DNA of 64,000 nt. Source: Lobosporangium transversale. Lineage: Eukaryota. The position numbers and the translations under genes are program-made. How positions within the stretch are numbered: position 1 is the first letter of the stretch; every line of letters begins with the position of its first letter. Below the pieces are notes generated by a model that made no database searches, was not told where the DNA came from, and was given only the letters and a program-made list of their open reading frames with translations. Below, in pieces: positions 17,901 through 27,956 of this stretch. The DNA lies in assembly GCF_002105155.1 (NCBI RefSeq), contig NW_019028999.1, positions 372,001-436,000 of the forward strand, in the 5' to 3' direction.

Positions 17901-18159
17901 CTTCTCTAACTTGATTGAGTTGTCACCTATCCCTATCGAAAAAAAGACATTCAATCAACCAAAGATTCGAGAAGCTACCAAGATGAGCCTTTCAAATCTA
18001 GCTATGGTTTTTGCACCAACGCTTTTGCAATTTTCTAGTGATGACATCCCTATTCAGATGGGTCGTTTACAGGCAGAGAGAACGTTTGTTTCAACGCTCA
18101 TCGCAGAGGTAGAGCTCTCAGATGAGGACCTATGTATCGTTGGAGAGTCTAGGAGTTGA
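14941..18159 (+). CDS. ARHGAP39: Rho GTPase-activating protein with two WW domains, MyTH4 and RhoGAP (ARHGAP39/Vilse-like)
   Basis: WVEITDPESRNTFYANL|TSGECDW and WWELFD...YYYNTKTGQTEWERP (WW pair). ELRDEIYVQLCKQLTQNPS (MyTH4). EGIFRISG, LRLWIRDLPEPII and KMSLSNLAMVFAP (RhoGAP). Seven exons. Confidence 0.88.
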
Positions 18160-19029
18160 GTTAGAGTAAAAAATTAGTTCACATAAAGACCTCTGGAGAC
18201 GCAAGAGATGTCTTGCCTATTTATTTGCTTTACCTGTGTTATTGGACCATGGAAAGCTCTATGTTGAACTGTAACCATCCAACAGGGCAGGGATGCATTT
18301 GTTCAAATCTTAGTGTATAGTCTAAATAGATTAGGTTATTGACGTACTGGACCTGGTGAGGTTTTCTCTCTCAGCTGTTCTCATTATAATAGTATCTTGT
18401 AGTCAAAGTCGTCGTTTGGATCCACACACCAGCCAGGTGAGTAGTAATTGATCCTTGAGCACACACACATAGAATCACTCTCGCGCGCAATAGCGTATCA
18501 CGATCTTGGATCAAAAGCATGAGACTTGGATGTTGTAATCCGCCACCTCCCTCCACTTGACAGACAGATAAGCAGTGTGGCTTTGGTAAACAAAATTCAC
18601 ACCTTCCTTCCTTGCAAATGTCGCTTTTTCAAACAGCCTTTGATTTTCTCAACTTGCATTGCCTTCTTTTATGCTCACAAATTCTATCCCTCTCTTTCTT
18701 TCTTGTTACCATCGTTATCGCCAATCTCATCCCCTCATTCTTATTACACTCCCCACTCTTCCCACTTTTCGCCTTCTCCACTCTTTAGTTTTAGTATTCA
18801 CTTTGTTCGTGAACCGAATGTCTTGACATCTAGCTCCCTTCTAAAATTCTCTTCACTCCTTCATTTAAACATTCCTGAGTATTCATTCATTTGCATTTCC
18901 TTCTGTTCATTTGTTTCCTATTACTTATATTGCTTCTGTCTTCTCACTCTTTTTTCTTCTCACTTTTTTTTCTTCTCTTGAGTTTTCCAACATCACTACA
19001 CACTTTGCTGCAATAACACGGGTTACTCA

Positions 19030-20883
19030 ATGTCCACACCACCATTGAGCCCTTCTACTAAAACCTCTTCCGGGCCTGTGTCGCCTTCAGTCTCTCGGCG
19101 GAAGCTGTCGCGAACCCAACATTCCAAACCAAATGAGTCTTGGTTCCTTATTCTTGTTAATGCCTTCAAAAGCAACTTTGAACAGACTCTTACCTACCGA
19201 GAGTCAGAACTTTATGCCTGGATCATGCAGGCCTATCCTTATTACCGTCACGATACTCACACAATGCAAACTAGTGTCAAGACGACCTTGTCTTCATATG
19301 AATGCTTTCGACAGAACGGCAGAAGTACATGGACATTCATTCCGCGGCGAGCCCTTGTCCATTTAGAAAGCCTCAAGTCACAGGAAAACCGCAGAGAGAG
19401 CAATATTTCTGGTGAAGAAGACGAGGAGGAGTTCGAGGATGAAGAACAAGAAATTCCAGATCAAGATCATGGCGAAGGCGATACAGAATCTCATTACAAT
19501 TACCGAAGTCTGTATACTGACCATCCTAACCGGCATGAGGCTCACGAAGATGGACCCAGTACTAGGATACGATATGTCGACAAGCACTTGGACCTGATGG
19601 ATGAGGATTCACCAACTTTATCAATCGAAGAGATCCAGCGTTTTAAGCAAGAACACTCTGGAACTCAATCTCGCAAGTTGAAGCGCAAGGCTTCTGGTGA
19701 ACATGGAAGTCGTCCCAGGACACGATCACCACCTGCGGCCCTTCAGGATGAGTGCAGCATGTCCATGAAGGCATGGTATAATTTGCTAGTCCACATGTTT
19801 GAGGCTTCACCTAAGCAAAAAACCATCCGTGAAATTTTTGCGTGGGTCCATGACAATTATCCAATTTATCGGGACGCTCCGGATAATACATGGCAGAAAG
19901 ATTTGACAGCCGCATTGGAATCAAACCCTTTATTCAAGGCAATGGGCCGAGGAAGGTGGCAAATGGTAACGCAAACAGCACAGCCTATCATAGTGGTTAA
20001 CGAAGGCACAGGAACGCCAGGAAGTGGCTCTGCAACTAATCCACCTTCAAAAGTCGGAGATGATGCCACCGATAGTCCTTCTGTGACAGAGGATGAGGAT
20101 TGGAAGGCCATTGGCTCAAAACGGCTACTCAACTTCTCCTTCCGACGTTATTCAATTGCGACAGATACTGTCCCTAAAAATCAATACAAGATCGGGTCTA
20201 CCGTCCCTGCTAATTCGGATGGTCAAACAGCAACAAACGGCAAAGTAAATGTGGCTATTATAGCGTCTCCTGGATCATCTCTGTCCACCACGGCATCTGG
20301 AGGCAATCTTCTACCCCTTGATCATCGAGCGACGGCATACAACACAACGGGAAGACGATTTTCTTCCTATCATCAACCAACTCCAAAAAACTCCCCTCCT
20401 CTTGCAGCTACTACTACTGGACTTTTACCAATCGAAGAAATAGGCAATCATATTAGAGGTGCATTGTCTCAGTCGGCATCGTATGAAGAAGATTCCGCCA
20501 GGAGATATATGGCACCATTACAGAATGCTATCAATTCTGCTGTCCTTGCACTCCAATCGCAACAACCTGATCAGCACCAGAATACTTTGACCACAGTGAT
20601 ACCAGCTACAGCATCTTCGCACATAGGCAACTTCCAGACAAATCGCGATTTACAGAATACATCACAGATAGGTCGTCATGAGGATCAAGGATCTACCCAG
20701 AAACCAACCACAGCCCTCGTTTCCACAGATGACGCCTCACCCACTGTGTCTTCCTCAAGAACGGTATCAAATCCTGAATCTCAAGTAGAGCCTGAGATCC
20801 TAATACCCAATAGCGAGAACCTTGCTTCTGATCAAATGGATGCCATTCATGCTTTGGCTTTATTGTGCGGAGGCGGTGTTTAG
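19030..20883 (+). CDS. Intronless protein with two divergent forkhead-like winged-helix domains and Stb3-like motifs
   Basis: 617-aa ORF. WH1: ELYAWIMQAYPYY...SVKTTLSSYECF...W. WH2: TIREIFAWVHDNYPIY...WQKDLTAALESNPLFKAMGRGRW. Also TEDEDWKAIG, several RRxS sites and a C-terminal DAIHALALL. Confidence 0.75.
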   Translation: MSTPPLSPSTKTSSGPVSPSVSRRKLSRTQHSKPNESWFLILVNAFKSNFEQTLTYRESELYAWIMQAYPYYRHDTHTMQTSVKTTLSSYECFRQNGRSTWTFIPRRALVHLESLKSQENRRESNISGEEDEEEFEDEEQEIPDQDHGEGDTESHYNYRSLYTDHPNRHEAHEDGPSTRIRYVDKHLDLMDEDSPTLSIEEIQRFKQEHSGTQSRKLKRKASGEHGSRPRTRSPPAALQDECSMSMKAWYNLLVHMFEASPKQKTIREIFAWVHDNYPIYRDAPDNTWQKDLTAALESNPLFKAMGRGRWQMVTQTAQPIIVVNEGTGTPGSGSATNPPSKVGDDATDSPSVTEDEDWKAIGSKRLLNFSFRRYSIATDTVPKNQYKIGSTVPANSDGQTATNGKVNVAIIASPGSSLSTTASGGNLLPLDHRATAYNTTGRRFSSYHQPTPKNSPPLAATTTGLLPIEEIGNHIRGALSQSASYEEDSARRYMAPLQNAINSAVLALQSQQPDQHQNTLTTVIPATASSHIGNFQTNRDLQNTSQIGRHEDQGSTQKPTTALVSTDDASPTVSSSRTVSNPESQVEPEILIPNSENLASDQMDAIHALALLCGGGV

Positions 20884-21569
20884 ACCCCACATGGAATAGA
20901 TTTTAATAAAAGAGTTTAGACTATCCCTTAAACCGTCAACCTGGCAAATTTGCCATTATAAATGGGCTTAAAATCCAGCAATTCATGGGCATTGTCTTGA
21001 AATTTTATTTCGATGTCGAAATAAATGACCGAAAACTGAGTTGATTCATTCTACCGCACCTTAGAGCTTGCTCGGCAAGACTTGATTTGTCACATCATTT
21101 ACTTGCTCGTCTTCTTGCGTTCCCTTGATGTATCTGGGTTGGTAAACACTGCTAGTAGAGTTTGTTGGGCCTGTTGAAACCAGAGGGAGCCACAGCAACA
21201 TATCATACCCAAGGTGATACAAATATCTCTGTTGGAGTGAGTGGTGAACTGTGTGTGGTTCAGATGTAGTGGACATAAACGGCGAAAGAATGCATCGAAA
21301 GGATGTGAGCGGTTATGAGAGCAAGGAAGAAGGGGTTGATATGCCTGTTCAAGTCCTTGGCAAGAGGGCATGAGTAGCAGTTGTGATCACGAGTTGATTT
21401 CGGTGAGTCCGCATAACAATGGTATAGTTTCTAGACCCTATCTTCCACGTACAGCATTGCATTATTGTTGTTTTCAGACCTGGCACCAATCATGCGAGGT
21501 ATTTCTCTTTCTGAGGGTTCCTTGTGTTAAACAGCCAGACAGAAAGCTTAGAAGAGATACAGACACAAC

Positions 21570-24500
21570 GGTGAAAAAAAAATGTATGCGAGCAAACAGT
21601 TGCTGTGTTTATTTGTTGTCTGCACATGCCTTCTTTCATCGCGGGCTTTTTTTTTATTGTTTCGCAAATCTTGTTTCCTTTTTTGTTCGTCAATCACTGT
21701 GTGCACGAATAAGCAGCTGAAGCATCTCTTTGGTTTCTGTACATGTATAAACACATTTTACATCGTGGCGTCTTTTTTTGTTCAAAACACAAGCGTTTTC
21801 CATTGGTGCTTCCAAACAAACTTTATTTTGGCGGCCACTCCACAATCCAGGACAAGGATCAGCTGGCAACAGGCCTTAACTCTGTCTTCGATGTCTGTCT
21901 GTGTGCATATGAAGCGGACCCATGCATAGGGTGCCATAATGAGGAGAATGATAGGATCGTGATGTCCCAAGACTCTGATTTTTTTGCGTACGAATGAGTC
22001 TGCTTCCTAGTGGGACCCCTTCCGCGCCGTAGACGGAAGTTTGGGGTTTACGATGTAGACAACGTTATCCAAGCACTAAGACTGCCATCACACGCGCATC
22101 TGGTGTTATTCTGTGCCATCGCAGGCAATGACTACTCAAGGAACCTCGAGACGTTAGGCCCGGTTAATAATCTTCGATTAATTCGAAACGTTGCGTGGAA
22201 CGAGAACTACAATAAAATGCTTCGGGACTACCTAAGGGAAGCTAGTAAGGTGTTGGGAAGGAACGCAGCCTCTGAAGAAGGCCGTTTCAGAGTAGCTCTC
22301 CGCATTTTTACTTCCGACCATCAAACGTCGGCCCAAGCGCTACCATTGAACAATGAGTTCGATAACTTCAAGCAGCGTCTACTCAATGGAAAGGATCTTC
22401 GTCATAGAATGACTCAGCAAAGGCGAGCGCAGCGTCGCAGAACGTAAGGAAGCTCAAGCTATAGTTTTGGCCTTGAAACCATACGTCCCCAATACTAATC
22501 GTTAGTCCCCTTCTTGGATAATGTAGAGACACACCATCATTCTATATAGCGAAAGGGTCACATAGGAACCAGTTCCGGCCCATCTTTTCTGACAAGGCGA
22601 GCATATTGAATGGGCGCACAGTTGATATCAGTAACTGCCATCAGCACGATAGGCCGGGCCTTAAGCATCCACCACGTCGGAAAAAGGCAAAAAAGAAGCA
22701 ACAGAAAAAACAAAAGCGGAAGCACAAAGGCAAGAAGCCCCACAGGGCTAAAAAAGAAGGTGCACCAATTAGGGACTTGAAGGATGCTACGAAGGTTGAT
22801 CACAGCTACAGCAGTAAGCACCTTATCAAGGCCTTAACAATTGGGTCCCTTAAGGCCTCCATGGCAAGGAAAGGCGGACTGGACGCAGATGAAAGGGATA
22901 GTATTGCAAGCCAGATCCGAGGGGCAGTTGTTGTCCTCAACCGACTACGCCGCTATGCATACTGGGCGATTGCCTTGGACATTGAGAGGATCATGTGGTT
23001 ACCAGGGGCAGCAAAGTCGAGGAAAAAGGCACTGGACGAGGTCTTGGATAGCAATGATTATTCCTTCCGTCTCGCCACCCTTCTTTTGAGTGGTCAAGGT
23101 GGCCCCAATTCAGCTTACGCGAGGGCAAAAAAACAAGGAAAGGCGGTAGAAACGCCCCATCATCACCTCGCTTATGAACATTTCAAGGCCACCACTGAAC
23201 TTTCCCCAATAAAGGATATAGACATCACATTGGGGGACGTCCAAGGCTTTGATCCCAAAAAGATCTCATTTCCAAGAGCGTCAGACTTACTAATGGGCCA
23301 AGTACAGACATCATTAAGGCAGCACTACAGGAACGCAATGGTATAGCTTGTGTAAGGGTATTTTCATGCATATTCTGCAATCAAATGCTCTTTATTCACA
23401 CCTTTTTTTTTTCTTTTTTTTTTTTTTTCTAGTTTGATGTCGAGAAAACAAATGAAGATATGAGCGACATTGAGTTTTTTCTGCGGGAGAACAAAAAAGT
23501 GAAAAAATACTCAGACTTTCCTACGTCCCCCTGGTCACCCGGGTATGTGTATCTGTCTGAACACGCCCTAGTTGACATCCTCTGGGCGAACGAAGATACC
23601 AAGCAGCTGTTGGAGCGTATTCTGCCTCTCAATAATGCTTCCAAGACTGCAATGTATGAGTGTGTACAGGGAACAAAAGGGGTTTTGATACAGGCTCTCT
23701 TTTGTGACATTGGAGGTGATCGCATGGTTCGTGGATATCAAGACAAAGTATCCCTGCAGTCACAGGACAAAGATCTAACTCGGTTCAAACTCAAAGGAAC
23801 GATTTCTACCAACGGTCTAGTTCTGAATCTACTTGCCTATGACACAACCCAGACGAAGAGACAGCAGCAGTCTGACGTAGATGAAGAAGACCCCAGCCAA
23901 GAACTGGAGCTTTCTCAGGGATTTCTCAACACGACGTGTTCAAAGGCGGCCGGTGAAGACCTGACAGATGAAGACTACGCAGACATAAACTGGAAGAGGA
24001 GCTCCAAACTGCTTGAAAACGTTGAGCTCACATTCAACAAACCAGGGCGATGCCCATCCGCAAACACCACAACTATCGTCGGATGTGATCCTGGTATTGT
24101 TAACGCCCTTACGTTTTCCTCCCTGGATCCTCACAACCCTAACTTGCGGCAAACGGTAAAGGTGAGAAGCAGGTTCTTGTACCTCCCCGTCCTCCGCTTC
24201 AATCACCTGTTGAACAAAAGGAAGCGTGAAAAAGGAATGATTGAGGTTGAGAGCGCCATCCCTGTGTTTGGAAGGGATACGTATAATGAGTACTTTCAAT
24301 GGATGAACGAGGAGTCTCAGACACAGACAGGATCAACGAATTTGGATGTGCTTCAAGAGTTCTACGAGTCCAGATGGCACCTGAAAAAAAATGGGACCTA
24401 CGAAAGGCTCAACGAGCTACGTTCGACTACGCGGTACAGCGAGTGTTGAAGATGCTTGGGGATAAAGGAGTACTTGTCGTCGGCCTAGGGTCCTTTGAAA

Positions 24501-24950
24501 GTAGTAAAGGAGTTCCCAGCAAGCACACTGCTATAACGAGACATCTTGTCACACAGGTATGGCTTTTTTTAAAAAAGTAAGCAAAGCTGGAAAGCCATAA
24601 AACCCTTGCTAATAAACGACTGCCATTTGAAACGCTTAGATCAAAGCACGAGGACACTTCGCTGTAGGAGCGCACGAATTTTACACCAGCGCCCGCTGTC
24701 CCCGACCCCTCTGCGATAGCTTTTTAGAGATGCTGTACCCTCGTTCTAAATATTGGAGGACATGTAAGGTATTCTTCGACCGTGACGCAGTAGGGGCGGA
24801 AAACATCGCAAAAATCGGTCTTGCTCAAATTGAGAGGCAAGAGAGACCTGCAAAGTACAGGCTCACGGAAGAGTCGCCTGCTCCGGCTGCAAAGCGCGCA
24901 CGATGCTAGACACAAGTATTTGGGTGCCGGCACACCCACAAAAAATTTGT
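21570..24950 (+). mobile_element. Decayed Fanzor-encoding element; boundaries approximate, left end especially uncertain
   Basis: Carries a TnpB/Fanzor-like nuclease gene with inactivating lesions, followed by a 3' hairpin. It sits between two conserved host genes. No TIR or TSD was identified. Confidence 0.7.
21840..24909 (+). pseudogene. XPG/FEN1-like nuclease fused to a Fanzor (TnpB-like RuvC + Zn finger) nuclease; disrupted
   Basis: Exons about 21840-22443, 22527-23340, 23433-24556 and 24640-24909. FEN1-like motifs: EAD (21911), SQDSD (D at 21971/21977), GNDY (22124). RuvC motifs: IVGCDPG (D 24087), HEFYTSARC (E 24676), DRDAVGAENI (D 24784). Lesions: TGA at 21995 and a frameshift in A8 at 24384-24391. 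Confidence 0.85.
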
Positions 24951-24970
24951 AAGTTCTGTTTATTTTCGTC
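24870..24970 (+). ncRNA. Candidate Fanzor omega-RNA scaffold / element right end
   Basis: Hairpin TGGGTG-CCGGCA-CACCCA (24921-24938) closed by ACAAGT/ATTTGT (24912-17/24945-50), immediately after the Fanzor stop. The position matches known omega-RNAs, but there is no expression evidence. Confidence 0.4.
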
Positions 24971-25741
24971 TCCTGTATCCTCTCTAATCTTTTGCCCCTG
25001 AATTTCTGGACTAACTTTAAAAACCGTACAGATCAACAGATAACTTTGACTTCGCCGAATTACGTAATTGGAGACGTAAGGGCTCTCGAACGATGTTACA
25101 GACGCTACAATCAGCCATCTGTGTCTGATAAGTTAAGTTTGCCACAGGGCAAATTTACTGTCAATAAATTGATCAAAAAGCTTTAGCCATATTCATTTAG
25201 TTTCCCTGCTTGATGAACAGCATCCAAGGGATACAAACTACTCATACAAGACCCATTTGAACTTGGTTTAGGAAAAAGGTCTATTTCCATCAATAAACAT
25301 TAAATCCTATACCTTGTTTACGCTTAGTCCACGTGATCATATACTGATTTTCAAAGAGAAACTTACACATCTCATCAGTTCATTGCGAGAAAATATATTT
25401 CTCATCTTTTTTTGTTGCAGCACCACGGCTCATTTACAGAATTCGCGACTGAGATTGGAGCACACAAACATTGATCTTACATTTATTTCATCCTTTGAAC
25501 GATCACACACCTCTCCTCCCTGTCATTACCACTTGTTTTGAGTTACGCAATATACAAATCACTTAAATCAAGGCATTCCTGACACTGTGGGACCACAAGC
25601 ACAGATTTACACGTTTTACGCTCGTTTTATAGCTCTCTGCAGCGCGCGTCATTTGGGGACGCCTGCTCAGAGTATCAGAGACGTCTTTAATTTCCTATCA
25701 CAGATACATTTGCACGGAAACACATAGACTTGTTTAGCAAA

Positions 25742-27956
25742 ATGAACCCAACACAGCCACAGCCACAACCTGCTATCACCCCTGAGATGGTTGCCAATCT
25801 GTCACAGGAACACATCACTAGCGTGTTGAATGTAAGTGTGTGTTGTTCATAAAGAAACAACAAAGTGCCTTTCGTTACGATGATTGCCAACAGTGTCTCA
25901 TTCTTGTAGTTTTATACTTACAATATACAATACCCTTTTGTACGATATGTCAACGTATAGGCTGTAAGGAATATGAAAGCCGCTGGCGCAACAGAACAGA
26001 CCAACCAGCAATATGCCCAGCTGATGTCCTTGCTGCGTGCTTATCAGGCTGCCCAGGCTCAAAACCAGCAGCGTGCCCAGGCTGCCCAGGGTCTTACGCC
26101 ATATCAACAACAGCAGCAGCTCCTTCAAATGCAACAACAGCAGCAGTTCCAGCAGCTTCAGCAAGCTCAACAACAACAGCTTCACCAACTACAACAACAA
26201 CAACAAGTAGGCGCTTCTGTCCTACCTCCTACTCAGGGCTCGCCATTCTCTCAGGACCAATTGGTAGATTTACGCCATCAGATCATTGCCTTCAAGCTCA
26301 TCTCTGCTAATATGGCTGTCCCCCCAAATTTGCAGGAGGCCATCTTCACTCCCAAATCAGTTGAACAGGTCTTGAGCGCCAAGGAACCTACGGCTTCGGT
26401 GGCTGGAAGAGTTGTTGATGTCGCTCGTCATCATTTGTCAGAACAAACTCCAACCGCATCAGACTATAACGCATATACATCACCTTTTTCATACCTTCAG
26501 AAGACTTTACCCTCGGCAGTACATGCGTCGCGTCAGCAGCGCTTGTTGATCCCTAGTATCTCGCCAGTTGGTATTGATCCATACGCATTGGCTCAGGAGC
26601 GCGATAATCGTCTGAAGAACCGTGTTAAATATCGTATTGAAGAGCTAGATGGTCTTCCTAGCAATATCGCCAGTGAGGCTCTTGACCCCTCTGGAGGTCT
26701 TCTGGGCCAAGAAAACAAGGCGCCACCATCTGGACCCAAGCTTAGGGCCTTGATTGAGCTCAAGGCGCTAAGGCTTCTGGAGAGGCAAAAGAAGGTATAT
26801 GCTTTGTTATCCTGTCATTATCTTTTACATTTTGGGGAAATTGATTGACTGATCGATATATATATATGCATCACTATCTGCAATACTAGCTTCGTGCGGA
26901 AATTATTAAGGGAATGTCAAAGGCAACTATGCTCGCAACATCTACTGATCGAGCCGCTTATCGTAGAATGAAGAAACAATCCTTACGTGAGGCCCGAATG
27001 ACCGAGAAACTTGAGAGGCAACAGAGACAGGATCGCGAGGGACGCGAGAAGCAGAAGCATCTAGACTACCTTCAAAATATTGTAAATCACGGACGTGATA
27101 TGATTCAATGGCATAGGACACAACAGATGAAACAGAACAAGTTGGGACGTCTCGTTCTTCAATTCCACGCTCATGTGGAGAAGGAGGAAGCCAAACGTAT
27201 TGAACGTATCTCTAAGGAGCGTCTAAAGGCTTTGAAGAACGATGATGAGGAGGCATACATGAAGCTTATTGACCAGGCCAAGGATACTCGTATCACACAT
27301 TTGTTGCAGCAGACCGATTCTTATCTCGCTTCACTCGCTGAAGCTGTGACAGCTCAGCAGAACGACTCTATTCATACAGATGCAACCACTCGTGGTGGCG
27401 TCGAGCTTATGGATGACGAATCGAACTTTGATTACGGTGAAGTACCAGTAAGTCCCATGTTTATTTTAAGACGTCTAAAAACGATTCCCTTCCCTTTTTA
27501 CAGTATTATATACCGGTTAAATTAGGCTGACCATCTATCAATGTCCGTACATTCATTTAGGACGAGAGCAGGCGTAATGACTATTACAATATCGCCCATA
27601 AGATCCAAGAAAGGATTGTTAAGCAACCATCGATTTTGACTGGAGGAACACTAAAAGAATACCAGATGAAGGGTTTGCAGTGGATGGCATCACTTTATAA
27701 CAACCGTTTGAACGGCATTCTGGCAGATGAGATGGGACTGGGTAAAACCATTCAGACTATCTCTTTGGTTACATTCTTAATCGAAGCTAAACAACAAAAT
27801 GGTCCATTTTTGATTCTCGTTCCTCTCTCGTAAGTGAGATGTCGTGGGATTATTTATTTGGATGCATATATTTGAGACATGCTGTTATGGAAGTCTGTAT
27901 GGCCTGACCTAATATTGATTTCTCTCTCTTTCTCTCTTTCTGTCTCTTTCTCTCTC

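Follow-up and report, generated by a model that had tools for sequence, protein, structure and literature searches.

The hairpin that follows the stop codon of a Fanzor1 gene in the 64,000-nt stretch of DNA analysed here (the window) is probably stem-loop 1 (SL1) of a Fanzor1 guide RNA whose scaffold DNA is split by an 83-nt spliceosomal intron, and whose two-stem form would arise only after splicing. On the best reading of the comparisons and foldings, the omegaRNA scaffold would measure about 50 nt, contain two stems and be made by splicing, with a guide predicted to begin at position 25043 (all features lie on the plus strand).

The hairpin belongs to a multi-copy DNA element of about 4.1 kb (20922-25042) that carries a broken FEN1-like/Fanzor1 fusion gene and was delimited by contig depth and loose contig ends. 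The copies of the element were seen through Logan contigs, and runs X1, X2, X4 and X7 were compared over 24850-25120; X1, X2 and X4, which share their variants and their flank, do not count as independent runs. Summed contig depth, a measure that is not equal to copy number, was about 100-fold higher over the element than over its flanks; in X1 it amounted to about 18,000-26,000 across 24950-25029 and to 122 past 25050, X2 and X4 gave similar values, and beyond 25042 it dropped to the level of a single locus. Loose ends with mutually unlike flanks were located behind 25042/25043 in 7+2 contigs of X1, 6+3 of X2, 5+3 of X4 and 1 of X7. The depth drop and these loose ends place the right end of the element exactly at the TA at 25041-25042, 133 nt past the stop, where a conserved non-coding right end switches sharply to variable flank. 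The left end is approximate, at about 20916-20925 as given only by the mean of the bin 20771-20941, and a TA is also present at 20922-20923. The earlier note had ended the scaffold near 24950, where it saw the sequence turn AT-rich. The shift in composition is there but modest (GC contents of 20%, 35% and 45% in successive 20-nt blocks after 24950), and it is not an element boundary, since the copies stay alike for 92 nt further, to the sharp end at 25042, and nowhere in the element is the depth higher than over the common stretch 24950-25042. Conservation running well past 24950 is what the note itself had named as speaking against its junction.

Two subterminal repeats (20974-20991 and 24993-25010) match each other in inverted orientation at 16 of 18 bases, a score reached by 12 of 2000 shuffles, and the right one falls inside the intron; in the related locus L008 a left-end repeat was looked for and not found. 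Internally deleted copies join 23947 to 24920 and keep the hairpin. A depth peak within the gene, at 23849-24019, corresponds to a piece retained by the deleted copies that join 23947 to the right end. Some contigs skip the hairpin or a portion of the intron (24921-24993, 24957-24999), one of them at depth 214 in X7, and C>T and G>A transitions make up most of the differences among copies across 20600-25700. The left end contains a 14-bp palindrome and a 9-bp hairpin (20942-20955, 21002-21024). The genes on either side of the element (19030-20883 and 25743 onward) encode a Forkhead-domain protein and a QLQ-domain protein, the latter presumably SNF2-like by its motifs. No second copy of the element was found within the 64-kb window and no transposase within the element; no empty site was seen among the Logan contigs, and no match for target-site duplications was obtained in metagenome contigs. 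The viral contigs searched contained no relative, and the prokaryotic genomes searched gave one weak locus of 27 residues.

The gene, of four exons from 21842 to 24909, codes for a FEN1-like domain with Fanzor1 behind it. The first exon (21842-22443; tblastn, loose ends at 21846/21847) encodes the remaining C-terminal half of a FEN1/XPG-like PIN domain with an in-frame TGA at 21995, and no tblastn match to the N-terminal half was found before 21842. A GT/AG intron at 22444-22526 joins it in frame to the Fanzor part, in agreement with an X7 joint from 22443 to 22532 with 5 letters between; this joint favours the acceptor at 22526 over an alternative one at 22505, with which the frame would run into a stop at 22519 that the favoured acceptor eliminates. 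The second exon (22527-23340; tblastn, and an X7 contig that departs from the stretch at 23340) encodes the N-terminal part of Fanzor, the third (23433-24556; sequence, contigs and tblastn) contains RuvC-I (CDPG) and a frameshift in an A-run at 24383, and the last (24640-24909; sequence and homologue alignment) contains RuvC-II (HEFYTS), a zinc finger, RuvC-III (DRD), a basic C-terminal tail and the stop. At 24883-24906 lies the code for the basic PAAKR end of the protein, which resembles a nuclear localisation signal. The RuvC triad, with its glutamate just before the zinc finger (D..E-x-x-TS..C4..RD), is present and aligned with that of the homologues; one zinc finger Cys reads Trp in the window copy, and other contigs have C at 24756.

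The identification of the window gene as a Fanzor1 is supported. The last exon matched PF07282 with an E value of 6.7e-5, below the cut-off, and the proteins P0002 and P0004 matched above it. In Foldseek comparisons, which rest on the model of the homologue P0002 (pLDDT 71.5) and not on the window's own protein, SpuFz1 was the top match (E 1.5e-10) and FEN1 the fourth (E 2.8e-9), and GtFz1 and PpFz1 were also matched; a profile of 13 homologues compared with solved structures matched FEN1 (E 8e-5) and SpuFz1 (E 0.016). The named homologues are Mortierellaceae proteins, several of them of 998-1502 aa; P0001 is matched by 446 representatives, 24 of 160 proteins match both the FEN1-like and the Fanzor ends, and a FEN1-like region lies upstream at 21 of 64 metagenome loci, many contigs being too short to reach that far. 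The FEN1-like acidic motifs are retained in the homologues, and the domain likely serves in the processing of ends at the cut or during insertion. The protein of the window copy is dead, because half of the PIN domain is missing and the TGA at 21995, the frameshift at 24383 and the Trp in the zinc finger interrupt or alter the rest; other contigs differ from the window at these damaged places. The RNA of the window copy could therefore act only with the protein of another copy.

The hairpin itself (24921-24938, with stem arms 24921-24926 and 24933-24938 and loop 24927-24932) starts 11 nt after the stop TAG (24907-24909); the hairpin, the stop, the outer arms that surround it (24912-24917/24945-24950) and a potential GCCGG/CCGGC pairing were all found where the earlier note had placed them. 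Taken alone, the hairpin is mildly unusual (z = -1.3, with 23 of 200 shuffles equalling its folding), and perfect stems of its class number 13 in 64 kb, 1 of them inside the element. The outer stem was rejected as a conserved feature, as it is not conserved across families. The pseudoknot that had been proposed between 24926-24930 and 24883-24887 did not hold up: the two segments are complementary, but G24926 is already paired in the hairpin stem, a 5-nt complement of the loop is common near such stems (3 of 9) and was present in 2 of 8 families, and deleted copies retain the hairpin without its partner. Stems of 4-7 bp with differing sequence, chosen by our own stem search, recur 10-15 nt before the splice junction in 8 of 8 families. 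Each of them is weak alone, since 4 to 62 of 400 single-family shuffles score as well, and the score of SL1 is reached by 31 of 186 other donor-like sites, so that the case for SL1 lies in its recurrence across families. Because a GC-rich stem of differing sequence occupies the same place in 8 families, the hairpin very likely belongs to the omegaRNA of this Fanzor1 gene, as the earlier note had suggested, even if the scaffold does not end where that note supposed.

After the hairpin, an A-rich linker (24939-24948) runs to a splice donor, and the AAxTT in front of this donor is the same in all 5 families aligned. Sequence, clade comparison and an X7 contig define an 83-nt spliceosomal intron at 24949-25031, with donor GTAAGT, branch site at 25010-25015 and acceptor CAG, signals of the same kind as those of the coding introns of the element and of a host intron. 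One X7 contig aligned to 24948, then to 25032-25042 and then to a foreign flank, which is an exact GT-AG join, and an X7 contig terminates at 24948. The spliced contig derives from another copy of the element and reads across the element end. Run X7 was labelled RNA by guess; the joint at the coding donor 22443 and the contig departing at the coding donor 23340 indicate that it holds spliced RNA. X7 also has unspliced contigs spanning the intron, it has no cover across 25046-25558, and the joined 24948/25032 form was absent from X1, X2 and X4 among the loose ends listed. One contig of one run, from another copy, indicates removal of the right-end intron in RNA at its exact GT/AG ends, although a DNA copy without the intron may also account for it.

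The right ends of relatives were compared in a metagenome scan that gave 64 loci, 4 of which were discarded because they lacked the RuvC-III pattern; the counts of 40 and 33 exclude loci with short tails. A tree of 46 distinct last-exon rows, built on few columns, separated 13 rows, including the window, from 33 others with a split of 100/100. A donor-branch-AG array starting at most 75 nt past the stop was present in 7 of 13 loci of the window's clade, in 0 of 33 sister-clade loci and in 8 of 1700 window tiles. Downstream of the stop, the window's clade carries a short GC-rich hairpin, then an A-rich linker and then GTAAGT, a donor that does not vary among the 5 families aligned. Three loci (L001, L002 and L004) have two introns flanking a micro-exon of 6 or 12 nt; in L003 the first junction is contiguous in the DNA, the first intron being absent, and a donor occupies the second position. 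In L003 and L006 the donor is present and the contig ends before the rest, L011 shows no clear acceptor, and L005, L007, L009 and L010, in which hairpin and donor are both absent, were read as truncated. Downstream on the contig of L005 (8253-8588) there is a second, weaker Fanzor-like match. Sister-clade loci (L012-L062) show a short hairpin after the stop and a recurring GTCAC-TTCG-GTGAC hairpin, and the L028/L033/L044 family has 27-bp terminal inverted repeats that start with G.

Removal of the intron brings the linker next to a terminal exon (25032-25042) that ends with TA at the element boundary and is predicted by folding to form stem-loop 2 (SL2), a 4-bp stem pairing 24948 with 25042 and 25032-25034 with 25039-25041; the flank contributes a fifth pair. 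The pair probabilities of SL2 in the window are 0.93-0.97 in the spliced form and at most 0.2 in the unspliced one. After splicing, the predicted SL2 of L001 has 5 bp and closes on 1892, where L001 and L002 diverge, and that of L004 has 7 bp and closes on the homologous base. In two families, those of the window and of L001, the stem obtained by removing the intron or introns closes on the mapped element end. With fixed TA ends, the chance of such a stem is 13.6% for 4 bp (random 12-mers), 5.0% for 5 bp and 0.8% for 7 bp, and sliding the acceptor gave a 4-bp SL2 at 4 of 67 positions. In L001, L002 and L004 the stem forms even with intron 2 retained, and in L008 and L015, where element ends are unmapped, a stem also crosses the junction. 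An SL1-linker-SL2 arrangement is predicted post-splicing in 6 loci. RNAalifold gave no consensus pair on the MAFFT alignment because the stem arms are unaligned in it, and model R1, which was therefore sequence-only, recovered nothing beyond the 9 sequences used to train it. Among the 40 rows listed out of 46, changes in the stems of old single copies of this genome were not compensatory.

An unlikely, though the best surviving, alternative is that what is spliced out is an ordinary intron in the 3' UTR of the transposon mRNA, the omegaRNA being the unspliced right end of about 130 nt with its guide from 25043. The unspliced X7 contigs agree with it, as do the intron-free right ends of the sister clade, which extend 127, 136 and about 177 nt past the stop, near the 133 nt of the window, and the GtFz1 omegaRNA, of 150 nt in the accessible part of PMC11423790. 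However, the unspliced right end folds only at shuffle level (z +0.5 and +0.9), whereas the sister-clade ends fold at -30 to -46 kcal/mol, values given with no shuffle comparison; the intron interiors vary between 78 and 106 nt across families and align poorly; and the exons are contiguous in L003. Much less probable is a role of the hairpin at the level of DNA alone, as an end signal of Helitron type or as a transposase site. The retention of the hairpin in internally deleted copies, its perfect 10-bp palindrome (24924-24933) and the existence of a subterminal inverted repeat would fit such a signal, but it lies 104 nt from the element end, which also disposes of the Helitron alternative raised in the earlier note, relatives retain the stem and lose the palindrome, and the window contains 99 palindromes of at least 10 bp. 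PMC3627910 describes Helitron2 repeats at a distance of 0-2 bp from the 5' end and on the upstream side of the hairpin, unlike in the window, where the left repeat is about 50 nt inside, and no Helitron family appeared among the Pfam matches of 7 ORFs. The version of the earlier note, with a scaffold ending near 24950, a pseudoknot with 24883-24887 and a guide from 24951, is scarcely credible. Its pairings are possible on paper, and folding of the unspliced RNA predicts the outer stem for the window and for L001, but the 20 nt proposed as guide are the 5' end of the intron, beginning with the invariant donor and common to the copies, and have no second match in the window, and the loop complement is no more frequent among families than by chance (2 of 8 vs 3 of 9).

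Under the preferred reading, a guide RNA assembled by splicing, the steps of transcription, splicing, binding, trimming and cutting are modelled on known Fanzor1 biology. The transcript would run through the gene and across the right end into the flank, and the spliceosome would join 24948 to 25032, placing SL1 and the linker beside SL2, whose stem would be closed at the terminal TA. Fanzor would bind this SL1/SL2 scaffold of about 50 nt and the RNA would be trimmed, so that about 15 nt of unique flank (25043-25058), a length taken by analogy with the 14-15 nt that the accessible part of PMC10432273 gives for SpuFz1, would guide it to the empty site left by excision. The empty site would be cut behind a TAM ending in TA, and repair from the occupied sister would restore the element (restorative homing). 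Judged by position alone, the intron may keep a DNA recognition site, the subterminal repeat, at the right end of the element and out of the RNA. For a whole clade of fungal FEN1-Fanzor elements, we slightly favour a model in which the host spliceosome builds the guide RNA through one or two introns that were gained or lost at two fixed positions. In this model the nuclease would be armed only by splicing, which might also act as an on/off switch, and the DNA end signal would be kept in the intron.

If this reading is true, the spliceosome would put together a transposon guide RNA, a route to Fanzor RNAs that is specific to eukaryotes and the reverse of bacterial IStrons, whose splicing destroys the guide, and the predicted natural scaffold, of about 50 nt, would be very small. 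Fungal Fanzor RNAs predicted or expressed from genomic sequence may then be the wrong molecule, and, if splicing is clade-wide, mapping the guide RNAs of such Fanzors in cell-free systems, E. coli or yeast would lead to misreading them. The published PpFz1 omegaRNA (Table S3 in the accessible material of PMC11423790, mapped in S. cerevisiae) contains a donor-like CAG/GTAAGC after SL1 and the linker, and to judge from its sequence it could be the unspliced form. Neither a spliced Fanzor guide RNA nor a FEN1-Fanzor1 fusion was found in the literature searched, which included 10.1101/2023.08.09.552727; Repbase, subscription papers and most supplements lay outside its scope and may contain one or the other. 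No paper on Fanzor together with Mortierella was found in the literature search, and the terms "splic" and "intron" were absent from the accessible text of PMC10711439.

In the accessible parts of the published work, Fz1 omegaRNAs are organised as SL1, linker, SL2 and guide and measure 75-150 nt (PMC11423790), and Fanzor1 omegaRNAs include the 3' TSD in the scaffold and have no 3' pseudoknot (PMC13565253). As far as those of PMC10432273 and PMC11423790 describe SpuFz1, PpFz1 and GtFz1, the window element resembles them in its RuvC D-E-D triad and zinc finger, in the fold match to SpuFz1, in a right-end RNA with SL1, linker, SL2 and a guide from the flank (all predicted here), in a predicted scaffold ending in a putative insertion-site TA, and in deleted copies that keep the right end. 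In contrast to these systems, the window's clade has a putative scaffold split by one or two spliceosomal introns, a predicted mature scaffold of about 50 nt from the stop, an N-terminal FEN1-like domain and proteins of about 1000-1200 aa vs 600-850, and the window element lacks a long terminal inverted repeat. CrFNuc of Chlamydomonas is likewise a Fanzor1 with spliceosomal introns and a guide RNA in the 3' UTR, but its introns lie in the coding pre-mRNA and none is described within the guide RNA in the accessible parts of PMC10530073 and 10.1101/2023.06.13.544871. The FEN1/EXO1/XPG 5' nucleases share profile, fold and acidic motifs with the homologues, whereas in the window the domain is fused to Fanzor within a mobile element. 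Finally, IStrons (a group I intron with an IS605/IS607 TnpB) also bring splicing and guide-RNA formation together at the same transposon end, and there, according to PMC10690162 and PMC13565253, the self-splicing intron takes in the entire element, and its splicing is in competition with the omegaRNA. The intron of the window, on the other hand, is short (83 nt), internal and GT-AG, a search of 24400-25400 against Rfam gave no match at E values of up to 5, and the splicing of this intron would build the omegaRNA.
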